Shown in pieces: positions 1,210-31,397 of a stretch of 32,000 nt of DNA (its first letter is position 1; every line of letters starts with the position of its first letter). The notes under the pieces were generated by a model. It saw nothing but the letters and a program-made list of their open reading frames with translations, was not told the DNA's origin and ran no database searches. The position numbers and the translations under genes are program-made. This stretch comes from Neisseria lactamica NS19 (lineage in GTDB: Bacteria; Pseudomonadota; Gammaproteobacteria; Burkholderiales; Neisseriaceae): assembly GCF_000193795.1 (NCBI RefSeq), contig NZ_AEPI01000123.1; one strand, 5' to 3'.

Positions 1210-3280
1210 TTTGTGCCTCTGGCTGCTTGCCGTCGCGGTACACCGCCGGGATTTCTTTGGCGGTCGACCAGCCGACTTTGCGTGCTTTGAGGGCGGTACG
1301 CACGCCGTAGATGGCAACGATGACGACGACTAAGAGGAACAATGCGGTCAGACCGGCATTAATTTTGTCGTTGAAGATGATTTGCGCCATTTCGCCGATG
1401 TCTTTAGCCGGTGCGAGGACTTCGTTTTTAGCCAATGCGTCGCTGTATTTGCCGGCGTGGGCAAGGAAGCTGACGCGCGGGTCGCTGTGGAACAGTTTTT
1501 GCAGGCCGGCATAGCAGGTTACAAACAGTACGCCGACGGCGGGAACGAGTGCCACCCAGACATAACGGTCGCGCTTCATCTTAATCAGCACGACGGCACA
1601 CATAATCAAGGCTACGCCTGCCAGCATTTGGTTGGCGATGCCGAACAAAGGCCAGAGCGAGTTGATGCCGCCCAACGGGTCGGTTACGCCGGTGTAGAGG
1701 AAGTAGCCCCACAATGCCACGGCGAAGAAGGTCGCAATCAGGTTGGCAGGAATGGAATCGGTGTTGCCGAAAGGTTTGTAGAAAATACTGCCCAAGTCTT
1801 GAATCATGAAGCGTGCGACGCGCGTGCCGGCATCGACGGCGGTCAGGATGAACAAGGCTTCAAACAGCAGGGCGAAGTGATACCAGAACGCCATCATGGC
1901 TTCGCCCGGAATCAGGCGGCTCATGATGTGCGCCATACCGACTGCGAGAGTGGGCGCACCGCCCGCACGGGACAGGATGGTGTTTTCGCCGACTTCCTTA
2001 GCGGTGTGCAACAGGGTTGCGGCATCGACAGGGAAGTTCAGCTTGGTGGTAATTACTTCGGCGGCGGTATTGGCATCCGTACCGATCAGGGCGGCAGGGC
2101 TATTCATCGCGAAGTACACGCCGGGATCGAGCGAAGCGGCGGCGGCAAGCGCCATAATGGCTACGAAACTTTCCATCAACATACCGCCGTAACCGATCAT
2201 ACGGACGTGGGTTTCGTTTTCCAGCATTTTCGGCGTAGTACCGGAAGAAATCAGCGCGTGGAAGCCTGAAACCGCACCGCAGGCGATGGTGATGAACAAG
2301 AATGGGAACAATGCGCCTGAGAATACCGGGCCCGAACCGTCGATAAAGTGGGTAACCGCAGGCATTTGCAAAGCGGGATTGACGATGACGATGCCCAAAG
2401 CCAAGGCCGCAATCGTACCGATTTTCAGGAAGGTAGAGAGGTAGTCGCGCGGGGTCAGCAAGAGCCAGACCGGCAAAACCGAAGCCACGAAACCGTAAAT
2501 CATAATCGCCCAAGTCAATTGGATGCCGTCAAGGTCGAACCAATGCCCAAAGGAACTTTTCGCCACATCTTCGCCGTAAACCACCGCCAACATCAGCAAA
2601 ATAAAGCCGACGATGGAAATCTCGCCGATTTTTCCCGGACGGATATAACGCGTGTAGATACCCATAAACAGCGCAATCGGCATCGTTGCGGCAATGGTAA
2701 ACGTACCCCAAGGGCTGTGAACCAGCGCTTTGACGACAATCAACGCCAACACCGCCATAATGATGACCATAATCATCAAAATACCGATGGACGCAATCAC
2801 GCCGGGAACAGTGCCGAGTTCCTGTTTCACAATATCGCCCAAAGACTTACCGTCGCGGCGCATAGAGACGAACAAGACCATCATATCCTGTACCGCGCCG
2901 GCAAATACCACGCCGAAGATGATCCACAAAGTACCGGGCAGATAACCCATTTGCGCCGCCAAAACCGGACCGACCAAAGGGCCCGCGCCGGCAATCGCGG
3001 CAAAGTGGTGTCCGAACAATACGCCTTTGTGCGTCGGAACGTAGTCCAAGCCGTCGTTGTGGCGTTCTGCCGGAGTCAGGCGGTCAGGATCGAGCCGCAT
3101 CACGCGGTTGGCGATGTAGAGGCTGTAAAAACGGTAGGCGATGCAGTAAACGGATATGGCGGCGGTAACCATCCATACCGCGCTGACCTGTTCGCCGCGG
3201 CTGAGTGCCAAAGTGGTAAAGGATGCTACGCCGACCAGTACCACTATGCCCCAAATGAGGAAGGTTTTGAGTGATTTCAT
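1199..3280 (-). CDS. cstA: Carbon starvation protein A (peptide/pyruvate transporter family)
   Basis: Long polytopic membrane ORF with clear CstA-type sequence. Start moved to the internal ATG at 3280 (MKSLKTFLIWG...), which has an AAGGA Shine-Dalgarno; the upstream extension in the ORF track looks non-coding. Confidence 0.93.
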   Translation of the reverse strand: MKSLKTFLIWGIVVLVGVASFTTLALSRGEQVSAVWMVTAAISVYCIAYRFYSLYIANRVMRLDPDRLTPAERHNDGLDYVPTHKGVLFGHHFAAIAGAGPLVGPVLAAQMGYLPGTLWIIFGVVFAGAVQDMMVLFVSMRRDGKSLGDIVKQELGTVPGVIASIGILMIMVIIMAVLALIVVKALVHSPWGTFTIAATMPIALFMGIYTRYIRPGKIGEISIVGFILLMLAVVYGEDVAKSSFGHWFDLDGIQLTWAIMIYGFVASVLPVWLLLTPRDYLSTFLKIGTIAALALGIVIVNPALQMPAVTHFIDGSGPVFSGALFPFLFITIACGAVSGFHALISSGTTPKMLENETHVRMIGYGGMLMESFVAIMALAAAASLDPGVYFAMNSPAALIGTDANTAAEVITTKLNFPVDAATLLHTAKEVGENTILSRAGGAPTLAVGMAHIMSRLIPGEAMMAFWYHFALLFEALFILTAVDAGTRVARFMIQDLGSIFYKPFGNTDSIPANLIATFFAVALWGYFLYTGVTDPLGGINSLWPLFGIANQMLAGVALIMCAVVLIKMKRDRYVWVALVPAVGVLFVTCYAGLQKLFHSDPRVSFLAHAGKYSDALAKNEVLAPAKDIGEMAQIIFNDKINAGLTALFLLVVVIVAIYGVRTALKARKVGWSTAKEIPAVYRDGKQPEAQSEA

Positions 3281-3796
3281 GGAATTAATCCTTATCTCAC
3301 ACTGTCGGAATATGCCTGAACGGCAGGAAACGACCGCCTGCCGGCACGGGCACAAACCGGAGTCTGAATGATTGACGAAGTATGAAACAGCGCGCTTGTC
3401 GGGACTTGTGCCTTATGCCCGCATCAAACAGTGCAGGGATATACGCGCACAAAACGTTAAACGCCGAATAGGATTTTAACGCAAATTAGCATACTGATAG
3501 CGGTTTTTACTTGGAATTTGGAAAAAATTTACATTCCTCCGAGCGGGCAGGCAGGTTCAGACGGCATCGTCAGGCAAAAGGTGGTGTCGGAAGACGGGTA
3601 AAGAAGGGGCGCGCAATCCGGATTATCGATTTATCGTGTTTCCTTTTCGGTTGAACTCCCGCCACTTGGACATCCGTCTTTCGGGGCGGTAGAATCGGAC
3701 TTTATTTGGGAGGGGTGCAACCCCTTCCGAATCAGGGCGGCACATAGGGCGGTGCCTTATGTGCCGCCATGTGTTTTGAAACATTGGGGAGCTTTT

Positions 3797-4177
3797 ATGA
3801 ATATCAGGTTTTTCGCGCTGACCGTGCCGGTTTTGTCTTTGGCGGCCTGTGCCGCATCGGAGGCGTATGATGGCGGCGGACGCGGGCATATGCCGCCTGT
3901 TCAAAACCAAGCCGGCCCGGCCGATTTTCGGGCGTTTTCATGCGAGAACGGTTTGTCTGTGCGCGTCCGTCAGTTAGGCAGCGGAAAGGTTGAATTACGT
4001 TTGGATGACAAACGTGCTGTTTTGTCTTCCGCCGTTGCTGCATCCGGTGAACGTTATACTGCAGAAAACGGTCTGTTCGGAAGCGGGACCGAGTGGCATC
4101 AGAAAGGAGGCGAAGCCTTCTTCGGCTTTACCGATGCCTACGGCAATTCGGTCGAAACTTTCTGCCGCGCCCGCTAA
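3797..4177 (+). CDS. MliC-family C-type lysozyme inhibitor lipoprotein (SliC-like)
   Basis: Start at ATG 3797 (GGGGA SD). Signal peptide MNIRFFALTVPVLSLAAC with lipobox. MliC hallmark motifs SGERY and W.QKGGEA, plus the conserved Cys pair. Confidence 0.8.
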   Translation: MNIRFFALTVPVLSLAACAASEAYDGGGRGHMPPVQNQAGPADFRAFSCENGLSVRVRQLGSGKVELRLDDKRAVLSSAVAASGERYTAENGLFGSGTEWHQKGGEAFFGFTDAYGNSVETFCRAR

Positions 4178-22846: not shown

Positions 22847-23220
22847 ATGCATTTGAGTTTTCCAAGCCCTTTCAGGAAGGTGGCAGCAACAAGTTTTTTG
22901 TCCTGATGGCGGCTGCCTTGGCGGCTTGTTCCCAAGAGGCCAAACAAGAGACTAAGGAAGCGGCCCAAGCCGTCGGATCCGATGTTATAGTGGATTAACA
23001 AAAACCGGTACGGCGTTGGCTCGCCTTAGCTCAAAGAGAACGATTCTCTAAGGTGCTGAAGCACCAAGTGAATCGGTTCCGTACTATCTGTACTGTCTGC
23101 GGCTTCGTCGCCTTGTCCTGATTTTTGTTAATCCACTATAAAGACACTGCGGCTTCTGCCGCCGAAGAAGCGAAAGACCAAGCCAAAGATGCTGCGGCTG
23201 ATGCAAAGGCAAGTGCCGAG
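22847..23220 (+). pseudogene. Disrupted small Ala/Lys/Glu-rich surface lipoprotein gene (resembles meningococcal Ag473/NMB1468 from memory)
   Basis: Frame ...LMAAALAACSQEAKQETKEAAQAVGSDV is interrupted by the Correia element. It resumes in frame as KDTAASAAEEAKDQAKDAAADAKASAE and is then cut at 23220/23221 by unrelated prophage-end sequence. Confidence 0.6.
22986..23140. repeat. Correia repeat-enclosed element, full-length (155 bp) form, inserted in the lipoprotein gene at a TA
   Basis: TATAGTGGATTAACAAAAACCGGTACGGCGTTGG...GTCCTGATTTTTGTTAATCCACTATA. Removing the element and one TA restores gat gtt aaa gac act (D V K D T) in frame. Confidence 0.92.
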
Positions 23221-23262
23221 TGTGGGGGACTGTTAGTTTTTGCACAAGGTACAAATAGAAGT

Positions 23263-23309
23263 AAAAAAACGCTGAAATCTCGGAAAGAAGTGGATTTCAG
23301 CGTTTTTTT
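23263..23309. repeat. Perfect 17-bp inverted repeat AAAAAAACGCTGAAATC-N13-GATTTCAGCGTTTTTTT near the prophage left end (bidirectional terminator and/or paired transposase-binding sites)
   Basis: Read directly; the half-sites contain TGAAAT/ATTTCA, reminiscent of the TGAAAC core of MuA end-binding sites. Confidence 0.5.
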
Positions 23310-23340
23310 GTATCCGGAAAAGTTACGCTAGCTTTTTCAC

Positions 23341-23368
23341 AAAACCGCGCCGGAATGCGCGGTTTTTT
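23341..23368. terminator. Bidirectional hairpin AAAACCGCGC-cggaat-GCGCGGTTTTTT downstream of the minus-strand repressor genes
   Basis: Read directly. Confidence 0.6.
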
Positions 23369-23424
23369 GTTTGAAGCTGACGAGATTAGGGAATTTTTAA
23401 AACTATTTTAAGAGGGTTTTAAAA

Positions 23425-23829
23425 TCAGTTTACGGTACGGCCGAACCATTCTACCCGGCCGATGATGGCTATATCGGTGTTGTCGGCTGTGAGGTCGATT
23501 TCAAAAGGCTCGTAGAGTGGATTGGCGGATTTAACCAAGAGCCGGCCGGGCAGGCGTTGGATGTTTTTGACGAACAGGTCGTTTCCTATGCGTAGGACGT
23601 ACAGGCCGTCGCGCGGCTCAGTTTCGGCGTGGTTGATTAGGATGTTGTCACCGTGGTTGAGGATGCCTTCCATTGAATCGCCTTTGACGGCGATTACGGA
23701 GAGCTTGTCTGTTTGGCGGGTGACGTAGTTTTCTATCCAGTATCGGCGGAAAACCAAGCAGAACAAAGGTTCTTCGCCGAAGACCGGTGCGCCATACCCT
23801 GCTACTGCGGCTACGTTGTAGCTCGGCAC
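23425..23829 (-). CDS. S24 (LexA/CI-type) peptidase domain without a DNA-binding domain; probable 3' remnant of a COG2932-type phage repressor
   Basis: VPSYNVAAVAGYG (Ala-Gly cleavage region), catalytic Ser in KGDSMEG, Lys in LFVKNIQRL and the IIGRVEW tail. Only a GTG start with no SD; in-frame TAG 11 codons upstream. Confidence 0.6.
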   Translation of the reverse strand: MPSYNVAAVAGYGAPVFGEEPLFCLVFRRYWIENYVTRQTDKLSVIAVKGDSMEGILNHGDNILINHAETEPRDGLYVLRIGNDLFVKNIQRLPGRLLVKSANPLYEPFEIDLTADNTDIAIIGRVEWFGRTVN

Positions 23830-23886
23830 GAATACAAACTCTGACAGGTTGACGGGAGCCTATGGTGTCGTACTAGTCTATTGAAA

Positions 23887-24240
23887 TTATTCTAGAAATT
23901 TAATAATGCACTGAATGCTTGAACCAGGAGCATAACCTTTGTTACAACCTTTCGCAACATAATCTATGGCGGCCTTACCTATTAGGTCAGCTTCTCTGTA
24001 TTTTTCTATTAACTGTATTTCTTCTTTATCAAGAAATTCTGCTTTAAAAACATAATTCATATCTGCACCTAATTCAGCAAATAAAAATAATGTCTTAGCT
24101 TCTGGAGCTTCTTCACCTTTTTCAAAACGAGTCCATTTTGCAGCAGTTACTTCGCAGGCTTTTGCGACCTCACGTACTGACAATTTTAAACGTTTTCTCT
24201 CAGCTTGAAGACGATTTGAGAACCAAGAAACAATTTCCAT
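23887..24240 (-). CDS. XRE/Cro-CI-type HTH regulator (117 aa from ATG 24240), AT-rich
   Basis: MEIVSWFSNRLQAERKRLKLSVREVAKACEVTAAKWTRFEKGEEAP...; strong AAGGAAG SD before ATG 24240; paralogous to the next gene. Confidence 0.7.
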   Translation of the reverse strand: MEIVSWFSNRLQAERKRLKLSVREVAKACEVTAAKWTRFEKGEEAPEAKTLFLFAELGADMNYVFKAEFLDKEEIQLIEKYREADLIGKAAIDYVAKGCNKGYAPGSSIQCIIKFLE

Positions 24241-24260
24241 TCTTCTTCCTTCTAGATATT

Positions 24261-24392
24261 TAAGCAACTAACTAAGCAACAAAATTTTTTCGGTTGCTTA
24301 GTTAAAATTATTTAATATCATATAGATATATAAATATGATTTTTGAATAAAATTGTAACTAAGCAACCAATTTTTTAAAAATAGTTGCTTAG
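24261..24392. promoter_or_regulatory. Operator-like array: five copies of TAAGCAAC/GTTGCTTA arranged as two inverted-repeat pairs plus one extra half-site
   Basis: Half-sites at 24261-68(+), 24273-80(+), 24293-300(-), 24360-67(+) and 24384-91(-). IR1 is 12 bp perfect (24269-24280 / 24293-24304). Confidence 0.5.
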
Positions 24393-24401
24393 CCCTACCC
24401 T

Positions 24402-24761
24402 TCAGGCTACTTCACCAACCGTAATACCGACTTCTTTTTTCTCCTGTGTTTTGGCGATAGTCAAAATAATCTCACGACTTTTATTTGTTGATTGTCGATA
24501 GTTTTGAAGCAGTTCTAATTCATCTTTGCTGAGTTCGTTTGAATTTTCAGACGGCCTATTTCCTGTGAAAAGGAAATTTACATCTGCACCTAATGCACAA
24601 AAAGAGAAAATAATTTCACAGTTTGGTAGAAATTGACCACGCTCATATTTTCCCCACATCTCACGTGTAATGCCGCATTTCTCAGCAAGTTGAGACTGAG
24701 TCAAACCTAACTTTTTTCTTTCTACTTTCAATCGATTAGCAAAAAGAGAAATATTTTCCAC
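24402..24761 (-). CDS. XRE/Cro-CI-type HTH regulator, AT-rich (119 aa from GTG 24761; ATG 24797 is the alternative start)
   Basis: VENISLFANRLKVERKKLGLTQSQLAEKCGITREMWGKYERGQFLP... aligns residue-for-residue with the N-terminus of the 23887-24240 product; AAGGA lies 9 nt before the GTG. Confidence 0.7.
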   Translation of the reverse strand: MENISLFANRLKVERKKLGLTQSQLAEKCGITREMWGKYERGQFLPNCEIIFSFCALGADVNFLFTGNRPSENSNELSKDELELLQNYRQSTNKSREIILTIAKTQEKKEVGITVGEVA

Positions 24762-24867
24762 AAAATAATCCTTGCAAAAGAGAAATATTTTTCTCATAAT
24801 TCAAAAAAGAGAACAGCACTAGTGCTTATTTAGTTATGTATTCTAACACAGTCAGAAAGGACTATCT

Positions 24868-25044
24868 ATGTTGATAACTGTCGAGAAATTAAAAGAAAAT
24901 TTTGAAAAAGAAGGCAAGACTCTGGCTTCTTGGGCGCGTGAAAACGGCTATCAGCCACGCGAAGTTTACTTAGTTGTCGGCGGGCAGAATAAGGCTAAAT
25001 ACGGCAAGGGTTTTGAAATTGCGAGAAAACTTGGGCTGAAGTGA
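24868..25044 (+). CDS. Ner/Nlp-like small DNA-binding protein (58 aa; below the ORF-track cutoff)
   Basis: MLITVEKLKENFEKEGKTLASWARENGYQPREVYLVVGGQNKAKYGKGFEIARKLGLK. AAAGGA SD. Divergent from the repressor genes and immediately upstream of the transposase, as ner is in Mu. Confidence 0.6.
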   Translation: MLITVEKLKENFEKEGKTLASWARENGYQPREVYLVVGGQNKAKYGKGFEIARKLGLK

Positions 25045-25051
25045 GGTTGAT

Positions 25052-27037
25052 ATGAATGAAATATCTAGCCGAGAGTTATCTGAAATATTAAATAAATCAA
25101 GGCAAGCATTAGACAAAAAAGCTTTAAAAGAAAACTGGCTTTATAAATTTTCAGACGGCCAAGGCAAAGGCGGGAAAGTCAAGCAATACTTAATCGCTTC
25201 CCTCCCTGCCAAAATCCGGGCAGCCATTATGAAACGGCAGTCGGACGAGTTGGCGGAGAAGATGCCGAAAACCCTGCCCCAAGTCAGACCGGGGACGGCG
25301 ATGTCGGCTCAGGCACTGGCTGAAGCGGCCAAGCTGTTGAACGAGAAACAACGGTCGGTGGCGGATGCGCGATGTGCGGTGGTGGCGGCGGTGTTGGGGA
25401 TTAAATATCAATACGGTTGCTCTGCGAAGGCTGCGGTGGCTCAGTTTTTGGGCTTGCTGGCAGAAGGCAAATTGGACGCGGTTACGCTCGGTAACTTGGA
25501 AAAGGCCAATGACCGCAGCCGGTCGGCGAAGGTTGGCGAACGTACTTTAGACGGCTGGATATCTGCCTACCTTAAGGCGGAAAACGCGACGGAGCGGTTG
25601 GTGGCTTTGGCTCCGAAGACGACGAAGGCGGTCAAGCCGATTGAGAGCTACGGTTGGTTGCCGATGTTTATGCAGTTTCACAACATCCCTTCAGCTCCGA
25701 AGCTGGCGCACAGCTACCGCCGGTTTGTGCAGTGGGCGGAAGCGGAAAATATGCCGGTCAATGATGTGCCTAATTTGAGTATGGTGCGGCGCGTTTGGGA
25801 CAAGCTGCCGATGATTATGCAGGAGCGTGGCAGGAAAACGGGGGCGGCTTATAAATCGCTGCTGCCTTATGTGAAACGTGATTGGGGGGCTTTGAAGCCG
25901 AACGATGTTTGGATCGGCGACGGCCACAGCTTTAAGGCGAAGGTGGCTCATCCGGTACACGGCAGGCCGTTTAAGCCTGAGGTGACGGTGATTATTGATG
26001 GTTGTACGCGGTTTGTGGTCGGGTTTTCGGTCTCTCTTGCTGAAAGTTGTGTGGCGGTATCGGATGCTCTGCGTATCGGGGTCAAGCACTTTGGTTTGCC
26101 GATTATTTATTACTCGGATAACGGCGGCGGCCAAACCGGCAAGACGATAGACCATGAAATCACGGGTATTACGTCCCGACTGGGTATCCGGCATGAAACG
26201 GGTATCGCGGGCAATCCGCAAGGGCGCGGCATCATCGAACGATGGTGGAAAGACAATCTGATTGAGATGGCGCGGCAGTATGAGACGTTTGCGGGCGCGG
26301 GGATGGACAGCAGTACGAAGAACCTGATGTACCGCAAGATGGAAAGTGCTTTTAATGCTTTGGAAAAAGGCAAGGATTTGACGGAGGAACAACAGAAATA
26401 TTTGAAAAAACTGCCGAGCTGGTCGCGTTTTATCGCGGATGTGGCCAAGTGTATCGACGAATACAACAACCGCCCGCACGGCGAGCTGCCCCGACATCCG
26501 GACGGCGGGCATTATTCGCCGAAGGCTTATCGGGAAATGAGGCTGGAACAGGACGGTATCGCGCCGGATATGTTGTCGGCGGAAGAGCTGGCGACGATGT
26601 TTATGCCGCAAGAGGTGCGAAAGGTACAGCGCGGTTGGCTGGATTTGTTCAACAACTCTTATTTCTCAACCGAGCTGGCGGAGTATCACAAGGACGAGGT
26701 ACGGGTCAGCTACGATTTGAGCGATGCGTCGACGGTCAATGTGTTTGATATGGACGGCAAGTTTATCACTAAGGCGCAGGCCAACGGCAATACCCGCGAG
26801 GCTTTCCCGACGGCGCGTATCGACCAACTGGCGGAAAAACGCCGAAAAGGCAAAATCAAGCGGGCGGAAAATGCAATCAAGCTTGCAAACGCGGAAGTCA
26901 ATCCGGCACTGGAACAGGCTGCGGTTTGGGACGAGCTGGGACATTTGGGCGGAAACGTCATCGAGGCGAAGTATGCGGTATTGCCGAAAACGGGCACAGA
27001 CGACGGGATTTTCTTGTTTGAGGCGGATAGAAGTTAG
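25052..27037 (+). CDS. Mu-type DDE transposase (MuA-like)
   Basis: 661 aa. N-terminal Mu-type DNA-binding region; DDE triad candidates in VWIGDGHSF, YYSDNGGGQ and GRGIIERWW. Confidence 0.9.
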   Translation: MNEISSRELSEILNKSRQALDKKALKENWLYKFSDGQGKGGKVKQYLIASLPAKIRAAIMKRQSDELAEKMPKTLPQVRPGTAMSAQALAEAAKLLNEKQRSVADARCAVVAAVLGIKYQYGCSAKAAVAQFLGLLAEGKLDAVTLGNLEKANDRSRSAKVGERTLDGWISAYLKAENATERLVALAPKTTKAVKPIESYGWLPMFMQFHNIPSAPKLAHSYRRFVQWAEAENMPVNDVPNLSMVRRVWDKLPMIMQERGRKTGAAYKSLLPYVKRDWGALKPNDVWIGDGHSFKAKVAHPVHGRPFKPEVTVIIDGCTRFVVGFSVSLAESCVAVSDALRIGVKHFGLPIIYYSDNGGGQTGKTIDHEITGITSRLGIRHETGIAGNPQGRGIIERWWKDNLIEMARQYETFAGAGMDSSTKNLMYRKMESAFNALEKGKDLTEEQQKYLKKLPSWSRFIADVAKCIDEYNNRPHGELPRHPDGGHYSPKAYREMRLEQDGIAPDMLSAEELATMFMPQEVRKVQRGWLDLFNNSYFSTELAEYHKDEVRVSYDLSDASTVNVFDMDGKFITKAQANGNTREAFPTARIDQLAEKRRKGKIKRAENAIKLANAEVNPALEQAAVWDELGHLGGNVIEAKYAVLPKTGTDDGIFLFEADRS

Positions 27038-27072
27038 AACGGTTTTAAACCTCTTTTAAAAGGACTAAAAAA

Positions 27073-27987
27073 ATGAAACAAATTAATCAAGCATTGCAAC
27101 AAAAACTGGCTGAATTTAAAGAAAAATCGGGTATGAGCCAAACCCAGCTGGCACGCGGTATCGATACTTCGCCGGCATCCGTCAGTATGTACCTGAACGG
27201 TACTTATGCGGCAAAAGGCGGTAATTATGAAACCATCGAGCCGAAAATCGAAGCGTTTTTGGAGATGCAGGAAAGCAAAGCGCGACGCGAAGAGCCGGTG
27301 TTTGGTTTTGTATCGACTAAGACGACACGCCGCATTGCGGAAGTGATGCGCGATGCGCACGAAGGCGGCGAAATAGTGGTGATCTACGGTCAGGCGGGAT
27401 TGGGCAAGACTCAGGCGGTCAAAAACTACTGCGAGAAAAACCCTGCGGCCATCTTGATTGAGGCTAATCCGAGCTTTACGGCACTTGTGCTGATGCGCAA
27501 GTTGGCGACTGCGGCGAAGGTATCGGCGATGGGCAGCCTGAATGATTTGTTTGAGTCTGTATCTGACCGCCTGCGCGATTCGGGCCGTCTGATTGTGGTC
27601 GATGAAGCGGAAAACCTGCCTTTACGCGCCCTTGAGATTATCCGCCGATTGCACGACAACACGGGCTGCGGCTTGGTGTTGAGCGGTATGCCGCGACTGG
27701 TGGCGAACCTGCGCGGTAAGCACGGCGAGCTGGTACAGCTTCACAGTCGTGTGGCGGGTGCGCTGCCTTTGGGCGATACGATGCCCGACGCGGAGTTGGA
27801 ACAGATTGCGCGGGCAACACTACCCGAAGCCGATGATGAAACGATTGCGGAGCTGGTCAAACAAAGCAACGGCAATACGCGCCGGATGAGCAAATTGATG
27901 CGCGGCGCGGTACGCACGGCAAACAAGAACGGTATCAAGGTGCAGGCCGGTATCGTTAAGAAATACAGCTCCCTGATTATCCGATAA
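27073..27987 (+). CDS. Mu-type transposition ATPase (MuB-like, AAA+ with N-terminal HTH)
   Basis: N-terminal HTH (GMSQTQLARGIDTSPASVSMYLNG), Walker A GQAGLGKT, Walker B LIVVDEAENL. Confidence 0.9.
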   Translation: MKQINQALQQKLAEFKEKSGMSQTQLARGIDTSPASVSMYLNGTYAAKGGNYETIEPKIEAFLEMQESKARREEPVFGFVSTKTTRRIAEVMRDAHEGGEIVVIYGQAGLGKTQAVKNYCEKNPAAILIEANPSFTALVLMRKLATAAKVSAMGSLNDLFESVSDRLRDSGRLIVVDEAENLPLRALEIIRRLHDNTGCGLVLSGMPRLVANLRGKHGELVQLHSRVAGALPLGDTMPDAELEQIARATLPEADDETIAELVKQSNGNTRRMSKLMRGAVRTANKNGIKVQAGIVKKYSSLIIR

Positions 27988-27999
27988 GAAAGATAGTGT
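27985..27999. other. Proposed recombination junction: + strand TAAGAA-AG-ATAGTGT (minus strand ACACTAT-CT-TTCTTA), Mu-like flank / core / filamentous-prophage end
   Basis: Both halves are exactly matched by loop sequences of the structured leader at 29102-29312 (see findings). TAA 27985-27987 is the MuB-like stop codon. Confidence 0.55.
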
Positions 28000-28156
28000 A
28001 TTTCACGGTCAAATAACTTTACATTTCTTGACCTTGCAAGAATACACACCCCGACTTGTTCGGGATGTTTGTTCCGTTTTGAATGGATTTGATGTTTTAA
28101 TTTATGTTTTATTTTCAATAAATTGAAAATTTACTAGGCTTTTGGCCGCGTTAAAT

Positions 28157-29107
28157 CTATTTATATCTTTCCACTTGGAAATCTTGGCCGTTCTGCAAAA
28201 GCGTAAACGCTATTACCGCCAGTTTCCTCATTATGGCGATTAATATCAGCTTTATATGTTTTCCCTTGTTTTTCAGACGGCCTACAAATTCAGGAAAGGC
28301 ATTGCAACGATATGCAACAAGGGCAGGCATATAAAGGCTTTTCCTTATTTCCGAACTTCCTATTTTTGATATTCTGCTTTTTCCGTTTACGCTTGTTCCT
28401 GATTGAAATTTTCTAGGGTCTAGGCCTAGATAAGCCGTGAACTGTTTTGCATTTTTAAATTCATGTTTTTTATAGGTTGATAACAATACGGCTGTCGCTT
28501 GCTCGCCTATGCCTGTTATTGTTTTCAGCCTTTTGCGAAGGTTGTTATAGCTTGGATTGTCTTTGTAGAACTGGAGTAATTGCTTTTTGACTATATGTAT
28601 TTGTGCTGTCAGGTTTGAAATAGTTGTTTGAATATGGGATTTGATATAGTCGGGTGCTTCGTGTTGTTTGGCTTTTTCTGTTGCGCGTTGCTGTTTCAGA
28701 TAGTCTAAATATCGGGCGATTTCCTGTAATTGCTTCTGTTCTTTTGCTGGCGGTTTCCATGCTTTTAATTTGTGCTTTCTGTCTTGGCAATATTGAGCTA
28801 TCAACTTTGCGTCTTGTTTATCTGTTTTTGATCGTTGTAGTTCTGCTATCGCATATCCTTTTATCTTTCGTGGATTCTCTACGGTAATTGTGTATCGTAA
28901 ATAAAGATATTCGGCTAATGCTTCGTAATATGTGCCTGTTGCTTCGCACACGCAATGAAGCTTATCGGTTACTTTATGACTTTGTAGCCAATTTATTAAT
29001 TGTTCAAATCCTCCTTTGTTGTTCTGAAACTTCTTTTGATGATTTTGACCGTCTGCAATCAAACAGCAATCTATTGTTAGCTTTGAAACGTCAATTCCTA
29101 AGTACAT
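28157..29107 (-). CDS. IS110-family (Piv/irg-like) DEDD recombinase/transposase
   Basis: 316 aa; LGIDVSK, CEATGTYY and KTDKQDAKLIAQYC motifs (RuvC-like DEDD domain); C-terminal ITGIGEQTA...SG.S...RISK.G....R..LYM.A Tnp_20 domain; AT-rich. Confidence 0.9.
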   Translation of the reverse strand: MYLGIDVSKLTIDCCLIADGQNHQKKFQNNKGGFEQLINWLQSHKVTDKLHCVCEATGTYYEALAEYLYLRYTITVENPRKIKGYAIAELQRSKTDKQDAKLIAQYCQDRKHKLKAWKPPAKEQKQLQEIARYLDYLKQQRATEKAKQHEAPDYIKSHIQTTISNLTAQIHIVKKQLLQFYKDNPSYNNLRKRLKTITGIGEQATAVLLSTYKKHEFKNAKQFTAYLGLDPRKFQSGTSVNGKSRISKIGSSEIRKSLYMPALVAYRCNAFPEFVGRLKNKGKHIKLILIAIMRKLAVIAFTLLQNGQDFQVERYK

Positions 29108-29312
29108 GGTTTAACCTTATTAATTCGGGCTTTTTGCCCTAGATAGTGTTCAAACTTAAGATGTACGAAAGCCCACGCTTCTATCTTTCTTACAAGCTGT
29201 ACGCTTTGGCCGTACTTTCGAAGTCGTGGGCTTTACTTGGTGTTTCGTCAAACGCCAAGCCCTCAATGGGCTGATTTACTCATTCAGGGCTTGAAGCTTA
29301 CCGTCTTTGCCG
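29102..29312 (-). ncRNA. Candidate bridge (guide) RNA in the 5' leader of the IS110-type recombinase
   Basis: Two abutting stem/internal-loop/hairpin modules (29168-29234 and 29102-29166). Their loops contain exact 12-nt and 9-nt matches to the element/flank junction at 27985-27999. The 5' end is inferred from a promoter-like TTTACC-17-TAGAAT. Confidence 0.55.
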
Positions 29313-29347: not shown

Positions 29348-29385
29348 TATTTCTGTTGCGACCCGAATGTCTGATTTTTTTAGGC

Positions 29386-29580
29386 GTATCTCAGTCTGGA
29401 ATCACTCCGTTAGTGGGTTTCCGGTATTGAAAAACAGTTCATAAAAAAGGAAAAGGGGGTGTTCGTAAAGATTGGGCAAAAAGCGCGCCCAATCTTTACA
29501 AAGCTTCCCCCTTTTCCTTTTTTCTGCCCTATTTTCCTGCACCTACAACCCCCGAACGAAGCGATTCCAGACTGAGACAC
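29386..29580. repeat. 195-bp compound palindrome with three nested arm pairs
   Basis: Outer GTATCTCAGTCTGGAATC (29386-29403) / GATTCCAGACTGAGACAC (29563-29580), 17/18. Middle AAAAAAGGAAAAGGGGG (29443-29459) / CCCCCTTTTCCTTTTTT (29507-29523), 17/17. Inner GTAAAGATTGGGC (29465-29477) / GCCCAATCTTTAC (29487-29499), 13/13. Confidence 0.85.
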
Positions 29581-29808
29581 TTTAAAAAAAAACAGCCATT
29601 CTAACAGTTAACCCCCTTCACTCAGCTCAAGCCATCCTGAGGGGTAAGGGCTGAAACCGAAAGATTTTTATTTTGAATGAAAGGAACTTTATGACATAGA
29701 TTCAGGCGCAAAAATCAAAGAGCGGTGGGGATAAGCAAAAATCCCCAAGCCTGAGAACAAGGGGATTTTTTGCATTCCTGCCAAGTGTGAAACTTACAGG
29801 AAAATCAA

Positions 29809-30011: not shown

Positions 30012-31097
30012 TTAGGGCTTTCCGCCCATTACGAGAACTTGGGGCTTGTCCGCTTTCGCGGACTGTGCCGCCTGTTCCGTCCTTTGCTGTTCGTCCTTGT
30101 AGGGATTAAAGGGTAAGCCGTTTCTTGCGTAATCTTTGCACATTGCCTTTGTAATTTCCTTCAAGGGCGTTCCCTGTTGGGAATAACATGTGCAATCTGA
30201 TTTTCCGCCTTCTATGCATCCTACGATTTGCTCAAAGGTTTTTACTTGTCGGACTGTGTTATAAATAGGCTTGCTTTCGGGCTTTTCGGATAAAGTCGGC
30301 ACAAAGTCTTCGGGTTTCAGATTGTCGGAATGCTCAAAAGGCGCTATCTCTGATGATGCCGTCTGCTCCGTCATCGTCTGCACAACGCTTTCTTTTTGTG
30401 CTTCCTGCTCAATCTGGCCGCCTGTGTTTTTGCTGTAAACTTGAAACATACCGTAACTTTTCCAGCCTATAAACCCTATAATCGCAATCAACGCCCAAAC
30501 CGCCCAAGGTACTTTTTTCTTAAACTTTTGGTGTTGGCTTGCGGATTTATAGTATTTGAAGGCTTCTTTAGGCGGTTTCCAACTTGCGACTTCCACGCCG
30601 CTTACACCTGCCGGATTGTCCAACGAGGTTACGCATTTATACCAAGAATACTGTTTCATGCCGATTGCCTTGCGTTCAAGGTGTACATGCTTTGAAACAA
30701 GGTTGCGGACAAATATATCAAGTTGGCTCGGGTGCTGCGTCATCAAAATAACGGTATGCCCGTGATGGCGTAATTCTGTCAGTTCTTGAATATAGGGCGG
30801 AACGGGACGGCCTGCCGCGCGTACCGGGTAAGTGTAGTGCGCTTCGTCAACAATCAGCACCGCGCCTTCCGGTATGACATCACGAAGCGGGGCGGACATG
30901 ATTTGTTCTTCCGTCAGTTCGTGGGCATTGAACTTGCGTTTGTCCAATCCGTCGATATGGCAGAAATAAAGCGGCCTGTCTACTTCCGTGCCGTCTTCCA
31001 ATTTCATTTTGAACAATCCGTCTTCGTTGTTCAAAATCATAGAGACGACACGAGAGGTTTTGCCCGTCCCCATATTTCCCGTAAACAAATAAATCAT
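30012..31097 (-). CDS. Zot-family / filamentous phage assembly ATPase (pI-like)
   Basis: MIYLFTGNMGTGKTS Walker A, VLIVDEAH Walker B, central TM segment WAVWALIAIIGFIGW; typical Zot architecture. Confidence 0.88.
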   Translation of the reverse strand: MIYLFTGNMGTGKTSRVVSMILNNEDGLFKMKLEDGTEVDRPLYFCHIDGLDKRKFNAHELTEEQIMSAPLRDVIPEGAVLIVDEAHYTYPVRAAGRPVPPYIQELTELRHHGHTVILMTQHPSQLDIFVRNLVSKHVHLERKAIGMKQYSWYKCVTSLDNPAGVSGVEVASWKPPKEAFKYYKSASQHQKFKKKVPWAVWALIAIIGFIGWKSYGMFQVYSKNTGGQIEQEAQKESVVQTMTEQTASSEIAPFEHSDNLKPEDFVPTLSEKPESKPIYNTVRQVKTFEQIVGCIEGGKSDCTCYSQQGTPLKEITKAMCKDYARNGLPFNPYKDEQQRTEQAAQSAKADKPQVLVMGGKP

Positions 31098-31106
31098 GTT
31101 TCTGCC

Positions 31107-31397
31107 TTATCTCGGAAAGACAAACGTCAGTTTTTTCAATGCGTGCATACCAATAAAGAATGAAAACGCGCCGAACAGATAGCCCAAACCCTGCCCGAAT
31201 CCCGAAATTAAAAGAAGGTTCAATATGTCGGAAGGCATGGAATTGATCGCGTTGGCCGTGTAATCCTTGAACTTGTTCAGTGCGATGAGATACCCGGCAT
31301 AGGTTACAAATGTCATACCCGTTGCAATGATGATTCTGACAATCAGCATTTTCAGGAGTATGCCTAAAAGTGGAATGAGACCGGCGAGCAATGGCAT
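31107..31397 (-). CDS. Small membrane protein, pVI-like minor coat protein (DUF2523-like)
   Basis: 96 aa with 3 hydrophobic segments. Sits between the pIII-like and pI-like genes as in inoviruses; its start abuts the upstream stop (TAAATG). Confidence 0.55.
   Translation of the reverse strand: MPLLAGLIPLLGILLKMLIVRIIIATGMTFVTYAGYLIALNKFKDYTANAINSMPSDILNLLLISGFGQGLGYLFGAFSFFIGMHALKKLTFVFPR

Follow-up and report, generated by a model that had tools for sequence, protein, structure and literature searches.

Neisseria genomes carry Mu-like prophages, among them MuMenB and Pnm1/2, as well as filamentous prophages of the Nf and MDA groups. Insertions of Nf1 and MDA lie in the dRS3 repeat at a CT dinucleotide, ATTCCCRC-CT-RCGCGGRAAK (PMC2212043, PMC7058167). 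The insertion sequence IS621, a member of the IS110 family, has an RNA upstream of its recombinase gene, the bridge RNA, in which the target loop precedes the donor loop; the left guides are in top-strand sense left of the core, and the right guides are the reverse complement of the core plus the right flank (PMC11208160). Here we describe a locus at which these systems meet: a filamentous phage lodged in the early operon of a Mu-like prophage in a 32,000-nucleotide stretch of Neisseria lactamica NS19, hereafter the window. The window covers bases 9101-41100 of contig C10 in a Neisseria draft genome (G000) of ~2.14 Mb in 132 contigs, and it ends one base short of the contig end, within TspB. 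It is very probable that an Nf-like phage of ~7.9 kb integrated without a scar between MuB and the next early gene of a Mu-like prophage of ~36.6 kb, by bridge-RNA-guided recombination of the IS110 (IS621) type at a site on the edge of a DNA uptake sequence (DUS).

The boundary between the two elements is defined to within a few bases. GC content drops from 0.57 to 0.36 at position 28000, and the first phage base, 27993, lies five bases past the MuB stop codon. Sequence comparison places the breakpoint independently: among related genomes, three other Neisseria align on the Mu side up to 27986-27992, and a fourth species aligns on the phage side from 27989. The abrupt switch to AT-rich DNA just after the MuB stop, which an earlier sequence-only reading had reported, is thereby borne out. 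The core at the junction has two bases, 27991-27992, which are AG in window orientation and CT in phage orientation; in the latter, the target half-site retained there reads CT-TTCTTA (core plus right target). The claim that no dRS3 repeat is present at this junction also holds, since the motif ATTCCC-N8-GGGAAT has no match anywhere in the window with one mismatch allowed; G000 has 236 exact dRS3 copies.

Beyond the contig, the Mu-like prophage resumes in the same genome at base 3229 of contig C56 with GCCGTCTGAAATGAGACACG, the sequence that also follows MuB in the uninterrupted Mu-like prophages of two other Neisseria species (G011 and G022). The G011 prophage aligns to C10 up to 27992 and to C56 from 3363 on, with 90-96% identity. 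The other phage end, the continuation of Mu and the insert-free relatives, which the sequence-only reading had named as the checks to make, are all available, and four attachment sites can be compared (a slash marks the crossover). The window holds attL, CCGATAAGAAAG/ATAGTGTATT (in a longer reading, CCGATAAGAAAG/ATAGTGTATTTCACGG), and base 3229 of C56 marks attR, GCAATATATAAG/GCCGTCTGAAATGAGAC (longer, ...GGGGACGCAATATATAAG/GCCGTCTGAAATGAGACACG). The empty site attB in the G011 and G022 prophages is CCGATAAGAAAG/GCCGTCTGAAATGAGAC, with the core region TAAGAAAG/GCCGTCTGAA, and attP in the circular inoviruses OR148970 and OR148973 is GCAATATATAAG/ATAGTGTATT, or ATATATAAG/ATAGTGTA in short form. 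All four have the same dinucleotide core and there is no target-site duplication, as in the IS110 group; they can be read as the attL, attB, attR and attP of a conservative exchange at the two-base core. The comparison confirms that a filamentous phage lies inside a Mu-like prophage.

These junctions give AAAG/GCCGTCTGAA as the landing site, the crossover falling on bases 1 and 2 of the 12-mer AG-DUS. The phage end AAAG/ATAGTGTATT is present at 13 insertion sites in 8 genomes, and the rep-side end abuts a DUS wherever it was located, as ...ATATATAAG/GCCGTCTGAA in G000, G002 and G044 and with one mismatch in the DUS in G056. These data support a target of 12-13 bp, AAGAA-AG-GCCGT, at the 5′ edge of a DUS that happens to lie at the MuB stop. 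Many AT-type DUS and Correia elements occur in G000, and only 231 DUS in this AT-DUS host carry the AG prefix; the MuB-proximal DUS is the best match in the genome, the 13-mer TAAGAAAGGCCGT having no other copy in the assembly and the 12-mer AAGAAAGGCCGT one other, on C109. There is no sign of Mu as such being recognized, and the same empty site is found in the Mu-like prophages of the two other species. The proposal that the phage uses a different target located inside another mobile element therefore stands in part: the target is not dRS3, but neither is it a property of the Mu prophage, and the location inside Mu is incidental. In the circular inoviruses, a sigma-70-like TTGACT-18-TATATT spans the attP junction and points at rep (10/12 matches), and even very distant copies retain TTGAC at a constant spacing from the core, which suggests a promoter formed across the circular junction.

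The same site appears to be spelled out in the leader of the recombinase gene (Table 1). Within the 200 nt upstream of the recombinase start, the phage strand contains, in order, ACGGCC, UAAGAAAG, ACACUAUCU and AAUAAG. ACGGC-C corresponds to the 3′-terminal five bases of TTCAGACGGC and the first base of the core, and UAAGAAAG is the exact complement of CT-TTCTTA in the MuB stop region. On the donor side, ACACUAU-CU in the leader equals the left donor plus core, and AAUAAG is a partial complement of CT-TATATATT; the far phage end is CT-TATATATTGC, not CT-TATTAATTC, and the right donor guide therefore pairs only in part. Fifteen homologous leaders align on a conserved scaffold and differ only at guide positions and in hairpin loops. 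RNAalifold predicts 27 pairs for this set, 20 of them with compensatory changes, and in the consensus fold the two guides occupy the 5′ and 3′ halves of an internal loop. The folding model supports a leader that would form a two-loop bridge RNA spelling the landing site, and we infer that this RNA is made and guides the enzyme. Rfam, searched in gathering and E-value modes, returned no bridge RNA family, only spurious miRNA-like matches on the neighboring palindrome. A longer left guide, with a bulge and pairing to more of the DUS, was dropped as not supported by the evidence.

Guides and flanks vary together among relatives. The right-target guide (RTG) was compared with the flank in 22 related copies carrying 16 distinct guides, scoring the five bases next to the core. 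It matched its own flank at all five positions in 21/22 cognate pairs and matched a foreign flank this well in 0/444 non-cognate pairs, where the mean was 2.2 of 5. Examples of guide and flank are AAGAAAG with CTTTCTT, AGCAAAG with CTTTGCT, ACCAAAG with CTTTGGT, and GUUUCAG with CTGAAAC. The left-target guide (LTG) changes along with its flank in at least three DUS dialects: ACGGCC goes with the flank TTCAGACGGC/CT at nine sites and ACGACC with TTCAGACGAC/CT at four, while GCUGCCU goes with TTCAGGCTGC/CT in a Kingella metagenome-assembled genome (MAG) and GCCGCU with a palindromic TTACAGGCCG/CT repeat in Vitreoscilla. Hosts of the ACGACC guide carry ~2,500-2,900 copies of AGGTCGTCTGAA vs ~180 of AGGCCGTCTGAA, and hosts of ACGGCC show the reverse bias, with ~1,900-2,800 copies of AGGCCGTCTGAA. 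These two words are the AG-mucDUS and AG-DUS dialects, respectively (PMC3630211). All 13 sites of the two Neisseria dialect groups are at a DUS, the one in G056 with a single DUS mismatch. In Eikenella, the LTG GUAGCCU would fit the DUS of that genus, a prediction only, as the far junction lies off the contig.

A positive control is provided by the same genome. Contig C44 (L017, 1409-3746) carries pieces of a second filamentous element, with a TspB end, a Zot of 39% identity and an IS110 recombinase of 38.6% identity to those of the window phage. Its leader has the same architecture, with the loops AAAUCCCGCA and ACGCGUAG (UCCCGC and CGCGUAG), and the guides spell dRS3, ATTCCCGC-CT-ACGCGG (TCCCGC-CT-ACGCG), which is the published Nf1 target. 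The method thus recovers the known target of a classical element and gives a different target for the window element. Together with C48, C61 and C74, C44 carries pieces of at least one filamentous element of G000 besides that of the window.

In the mechanism proposed here, a double-stranded circular phage would present the donor site ...ACACTAT-CT-TATATATT... and the chromosome the target ...TTCAGACGGC-CT-TTCTTA.... The two would be exchanged at the CT core (AG on the window strand) without target duplication. The LTG, ACGGC(C), would pair with the first bases of an AG-type DUS, and the RTG, UAAGAAAG, with five to six bases on the far side of the core, here the MuB stop region. Together, recombinase and leader RNA would be expected to join ACACTATCTTATATATT to the target CAGACGGCCTTTCTTA, and specificity would follow the loops, for instance on a change from ACGGCC to ACGACC or from UAAGAAAG to UAGCAAAG with matching targets. 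Excision would be expected to give the circle junction ...GAAATACACTAT-CT-TATATATTGCG... and the restored chromosomal site TAAGAAAG/GCCGTCTGAAATGAG. That dRS3 is absent would then follow from the setting of this recombinase lineage to the edge of the DUS. A broader proposal, somewhat favored on present evidence, is that a clade of Neisseriaceae filamentous phages (in Neisseria, Kingella and probably Eikenella) has left guides that co-evolved with the DUS dialect of the host, so that the transformation tag serves as phage attachment site. If this is true, a prophage would always have an intact DUS beside it and could thereby spread more readily by transformation, and scarless excision could restore the interrupted sequence, here the Mu early operon.

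Two explanations would do away with guided integration altogether. The window contig ends 4 kb past the junction, within a repeated phage gene, as might be expected of an assembly chimera or of an unrelated deletion boundary truncating the Mu prophage at MuB, the outcome in which Mu genes fail to resume after the phage. Neither junction is at a contig edge, however, and independently built Logan assemblies, those of run ERR1145113, contain both (99.94% identity across 6.3 kb and 98% across 8.1 kb); the junction is therefore not a chimera; the flanks join to the base into the empty site of G011 and G022, the phage ends join into the attP of the circular inoviruses, and the full Mu late region is present on C56. 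Many inoviruses use the host recombinases XerCD. It is nevertheless scarcely conceivable here that XerCD acted on a dif-like sequence, as happens with CTX-phi, or that the phage entered through a tyrosine or serine integrase: Pfam scans of the phage open reading frames (ORFs) found no integrase besides the IS110 gene, the sites have only a 2-3 bp core in common while at least 13 different flanks are used, and the covariation of guide and flank points to RNA. On this junction and covariation evidence, XerCD/dif integration and the similarly far-fetched chimera or deletion boundary were rejected.

Other explanations accept the exchange and question its meaning or its history. The association with DUS might be incidental, the recombinase needing only ~12 bp (ACGGC-CT-TTCTT) that are often DUS-borne, with no adaptive targeting of DUS. 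The guide does match only five left-target bases and one core base; 231 of the 456 AGGCCGT words and 47 of the 70 AAAGGCCGT words in G000 lie within a full DUS, and two copies, in G062 and L108, use non-DUS flanks. The guide nevertheless changes with the host dialect, ACGAC in AGGTCGTCTGAA hosts and ACGGC in AGGCCGTCTGAA hosts, with GCUGC by TTCAGGCTGC in the Kingella MAG and GCCG by the palindromic TTACAGGCCG in Vitreoscilla; together with the DUS at all 13 sites of the two dialect groups (that of G056 mismatched once), this makes an incidental link unlikely. It is also possible, and somewhat less unlikely, that the junction was not made in this strain, the Mu and phage composite having been passed down, or taken up by transformation and recombined into the chromosome by homology. 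Transformation has been suggested for the spread of Nf1 between species (PMC7058167), both junctions are found at 98-99.9% identity in Logan assemblies of other samples, and the integration module shares 94-97% identity with those in N. flavescens and N. uirgultaei, carried there by phages that otherwise differ. Such a history bears on when and where the insertion arose, not on how, and the junctions would still require site-specific exchange at a CT core.

Several points weigh against bridge-RNA-guided integration at a DUS edge as set out above. All evidence is sequence-based. Because most GCCGT words belong to a DUS (51-67% in G000), adjacency to DUS is partly to be expected for a guide this short. 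The left guide covers only five target bases and the first core base, and its last base is A where the core has T. Exceptions occur among the relatives: the guide of L070 has a one-base mismatch, G045 has an extra AG at attR, and the phage of G062, an AG-DUS host, targets a non-DUS repeat. In L108 (Logan ERR1517532, 200-260), a rep end of 99.75% identity abuts CAACTGTAC/CT, which is not a DUS and suggests that the same phage body was paired with a different guide or that the insertion was off target. The G000 phage is spread across four contigs, and its continuity rests on the contig of a related isolate at 91-100% identity. The event may also date from an ancestor, or transformation may have brought in the composite.

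The phage itself fits the Nf/MDA layout that the sequence-only reading had assigned to it. Pfam searches of window and C56 ORFs, with the genes on Logan contigs, gave the inovirus gene set in Nf order (Rep_trans, coat B, TspB, pVI-like, Zot/pI), and in the window the recombinase, Zot, pVI-like and TspB-like genes are indeed co-oriented, all on the minus strand (Table 1). Rep_trans lies at 1781-3139 of C56, which also carries Phage_Coat_B. The size of ~7.9 kb is the sum of window 27993 to the contig end, C40, C43 and C56 1-3228, ordered on the Logan contig L107 of a related isolate (C56 3228-1, C43, C40, end of C10). No exact k-mer overlaps between contig ends were found that would close the phage gap, and the G044 and G002 prophages were rejected as scaffolds for it, the part in common being only the 1.3-kb recombinase module.

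Table 1. Features of the window, with position, strand and supporting evidence or remarks.
Feature	Position	Strand	Evidence or remarks
Left part of Mu-like prophage	23220..27992	+	94% identity to G011 Mu-like prophage up to 27992
Repressor-like helix-turn-helix (HTH) gene	24402-24797	-	Left part of Mu-like prophage
ner-like gene	24868-25044	+	Left part of Mu-like prophage
MuA	25052-27037	+	Pfam Mu-transpos_C, rve, HTH_Tnp_Mu_1; 661 amino acids (aa)
MuB	27073-27987	+	Pfam AAA_22 and HTH_3; stop codon TAA 27985-27987
Target half-site kept at junction, TAAGAA (holds MuB stop) and core AG	27985..27992		Compared with empty site CCGATAAGAAAG/GCCGTCTGAAATGAGAC in G011, G022
Recombinase-side phage end (left donor, ...GAAATACACTAT on phage strand)	27993..28012	-	-35-like TTGACC at 28007-28012
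GC-rich hairpin past recombinase stop, terminator-like on both strands	28046..28068		Promoter/terminator scan
IS110-family (Piv/MooV-type, DEDD) recombinase, 316 aa	28157..29107	-	Pfam DEDD_Tnp_IS110 and Transposase_20, E 7e-26 and 2e-23
Predicted bridge RNA: two 5′ stem-loops, target-binding loop, then donor-binding loop	about 29115-29292	-	Recombinase leader
Right-donor guide (RDG) GAAUUAAUAAGG	29115-29126	-	Bridge RNA donor loop
Left-donor guide (LDG) ACACUAUCU	29141-29149	-	Bridge RNA donor loop
Right-target guide (RTG) UAAGAAAG	29185-29192	-	Bridge RNA target loop
Left-target guide (LTG) ACGGCC	29208-29213	-	Bridge RNA target loop
Promoter-like site TTTACC-17-TAGAAT	29347-29319	-	Promoter scan, upstream of bridge RNA
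Long, nearly perfect palindrome between Zot and bridge RNA	29376..29589		No ORF of at least 50 aa across it
Zot/pI-like	30012-31097	-	Pfam
DUF2523/pVI-like	31107-31397	-	Pfam
TspB C-terminus, 200 aa	31398-32000	-	Pfam

Copies in N. uirgultaei and N. flavescens share 96-97% identity with the recombinase, and a gonococcal irg fragment ~45%; the irg copy on contig L087 is without a leader. The 1.3-kb recombinase module is 94-97% identical between phages whose remaining genes do not align, and it therefore appears to move as a cassette. Among metagenomic inovirus genomes from human saliva there are circular relatives (OR148970 and OR148973). Between recombinase and Zot lies an ORF-free stretch of 0.9 kb that includes the palindrome, probably a phage origin or packaging element; its sub-threshold Rfam matches to several microRNA precursor models are artifacts of a long hairpin. 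Two Logan contigs from other runs, L107 and L109, start exactly at the CT core of the rep-side phage end, as is expected if the assembly graph branches there from several contexts or from a circular form.

Some relatives show further peculiarities. In G044 (L048), 13 nt of the phage end are duplicated in tandem (CGAAATATATAAG twice), and the extra AG of G045 (L050) stands between phage end and DUS, TATAAG-AG-GCCGTC. The two G062 sites (L100 and L101) have the guides CAUUUCCCUU and GGGUUAG and both have the flanks CCACCCTTCCC/CT/AACCCC, a palindromic repeat. Three related phage-borne recombinase copies in Vitreoscilla massiliensis (L061-L063) all adjoin TTACAGGCCG, which in 2/3 copies forms an inverted pair (CGGCCTGTAAAC...TTACAGGCCG) like a DUS terminator pair and may be an uptake-sequence-like repeat of that genus.

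The Mu-like prophage has a full set of Mu genes. Its parts, window 23220-27992 and C56 3229 to ~35041, add up to ~36.6 kb and contain the Mu-type set of MuA domains, MuB ATPase, Gam, Mor, portal, F and protease I. Past base 3229, C56 encodes an RdgC-like protein, amidase, Mu portal, Mu F, protease I, sheath, tape measure, DNA-circularization protein, baseplate and fiber before the host genes begin at about 35 kb, and Gam, GemA and Mor adjoin the phage rep gene on a Logan contig from run ERR1145113. The prophage begins with TG at about 23220 of the window and ends with CA at about 35041 of C56, and it has repeated TTGTGCAAAAGCT-like sites resembling MuA sites; the five bases flanking its ends, whose positions are approximate, show no matching duplication (CCGAG vs GGGCA). 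Just left of the Mu-like end, at window 23000-23143, lies a Correia-type repeat of ~145 bp with dozens of genome copies at 93-99% identity. On C56 (L016), a GC-rich 128-bp repeat at 3258-3385 (CCCTCTCCC...GGGAGAGGG), similar to repetitive extragenic palindromic (REP) elements and with about ten related copies in the genome, interrupts the first small Mu gene after B. In Logan contig L105 (ERR1145113), which differs from the window by 1 mismatch and 3 gap openings over 6.3 kb, MuA at 1939-3925 is split into two predicted ORFs (294 and 349 aa), owing either to a frameshift in the isolate or to misassembly.

The phage is antisense to the Mu early operon, and a terminator-like hairpin at 28050-28076 faces incoming Mu transcription; this probably severs gam, gemA and mor from the early promoter. 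By parting Pe-ner-A-B from these genes, the insertion probably disables the Mu-like prophage; as the exchange is scarless, the operon would be whole again after excision. Guided integration at DUS edges would explain why some neisserial filamentous prophages lie outside dRS3, which matters for mapping them, and G000 would be a natural case of one genome with two filamentous phages whose bridge RNAs are set to dRS3 and DUS. It would also link two main routes of gene flow in Neisseria, in that the uptake mark is also a phage landing pad and the guide tracks the dialect across species. For a recombinase family now used in genome engineering, these phages would offer a natural series of reprogrammed guides with real genomic targets. 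No description of bridge RNAs of neisserial phages, or of DUS as phage attachment site, was found in the literature searched, the coverage of which was incomplete.

Among described systems, the closest are MDA-phi and Nf1-Nf4 (Bille 2005, PMC2212043; Kawai 2005, as presented in PMC7058167). Like them, the window phage is ~8 kb long and low in GC, carries co-oriented Rep_trans, coat B, TspB, DUF2523 and Zot genes with a Piv/IS110-type transposase at the 3′ end, and crosses over at a CT core in an abundant genomic repeat. It differs in lying at a DUS edge (AAAG/GCCGTCTGAA) and not in dRS3, with the CT core kept, and in a recombinase that is only 38.6% identical to the co-resident dRS3-type copy. 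Neisseria Mu-like prophages such as MuMenB and Pnm1/2 have the same order of repressor, ner, A, B, gam, gemA and mor, followed by a Mu-type head and contractile tail; the copy described here is distinguished by a filamentous phage that cuts the early operon and by the 128-bp REP-like repeat after B.

In its integration, the phage most resembles IS621 and other IS110 elements (Durrant 2024, PMC11208160). Its recombinase has the DEDD and Transposase_20 domains, and the predicted bridge RNA, encoded ahead of the gene, has two internal loops whose left and right guides agree with IS621 in order and strand sense. The core is CT, the target is not duplicated, and each element end supplies one half of a -35/-10 pair, as in IS110 junction promoters. 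The mobile unit here differs in being a whole phage, ~6.5 kb of whose genes separate the rep-side donor end from the bridge RNA; the junction promoter therefore faces rep, and a whole phage genome separates it from the bridge RNA. The predicted left guide is shorter than that of IS621 (5+1 vs 9) and the predicted right guide longer (7-8 vs 4). IS110 and IS1111 elements that target REP sequences or other repeats (Tobes and Pareja 2006, as cited in PMC11208160; ISPpu9, PMC12288879) also use a short, highly repeated and mostly intergenic host sequence as a safe place to land, although here the repeat is the transformation tag of the Neisseriaceae and the cargo is a phage. Satellites embedded in the late genes of helper prophages (PMC10111431) likewise place one mobile element inside another prophage. 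Their integrase clade specifically targets phage genes and the arrangement is regulatory, whereas the phage described here uses a DUS-edge 12-mer of a generic kind, and nothing indicates that either phage depends on the other.

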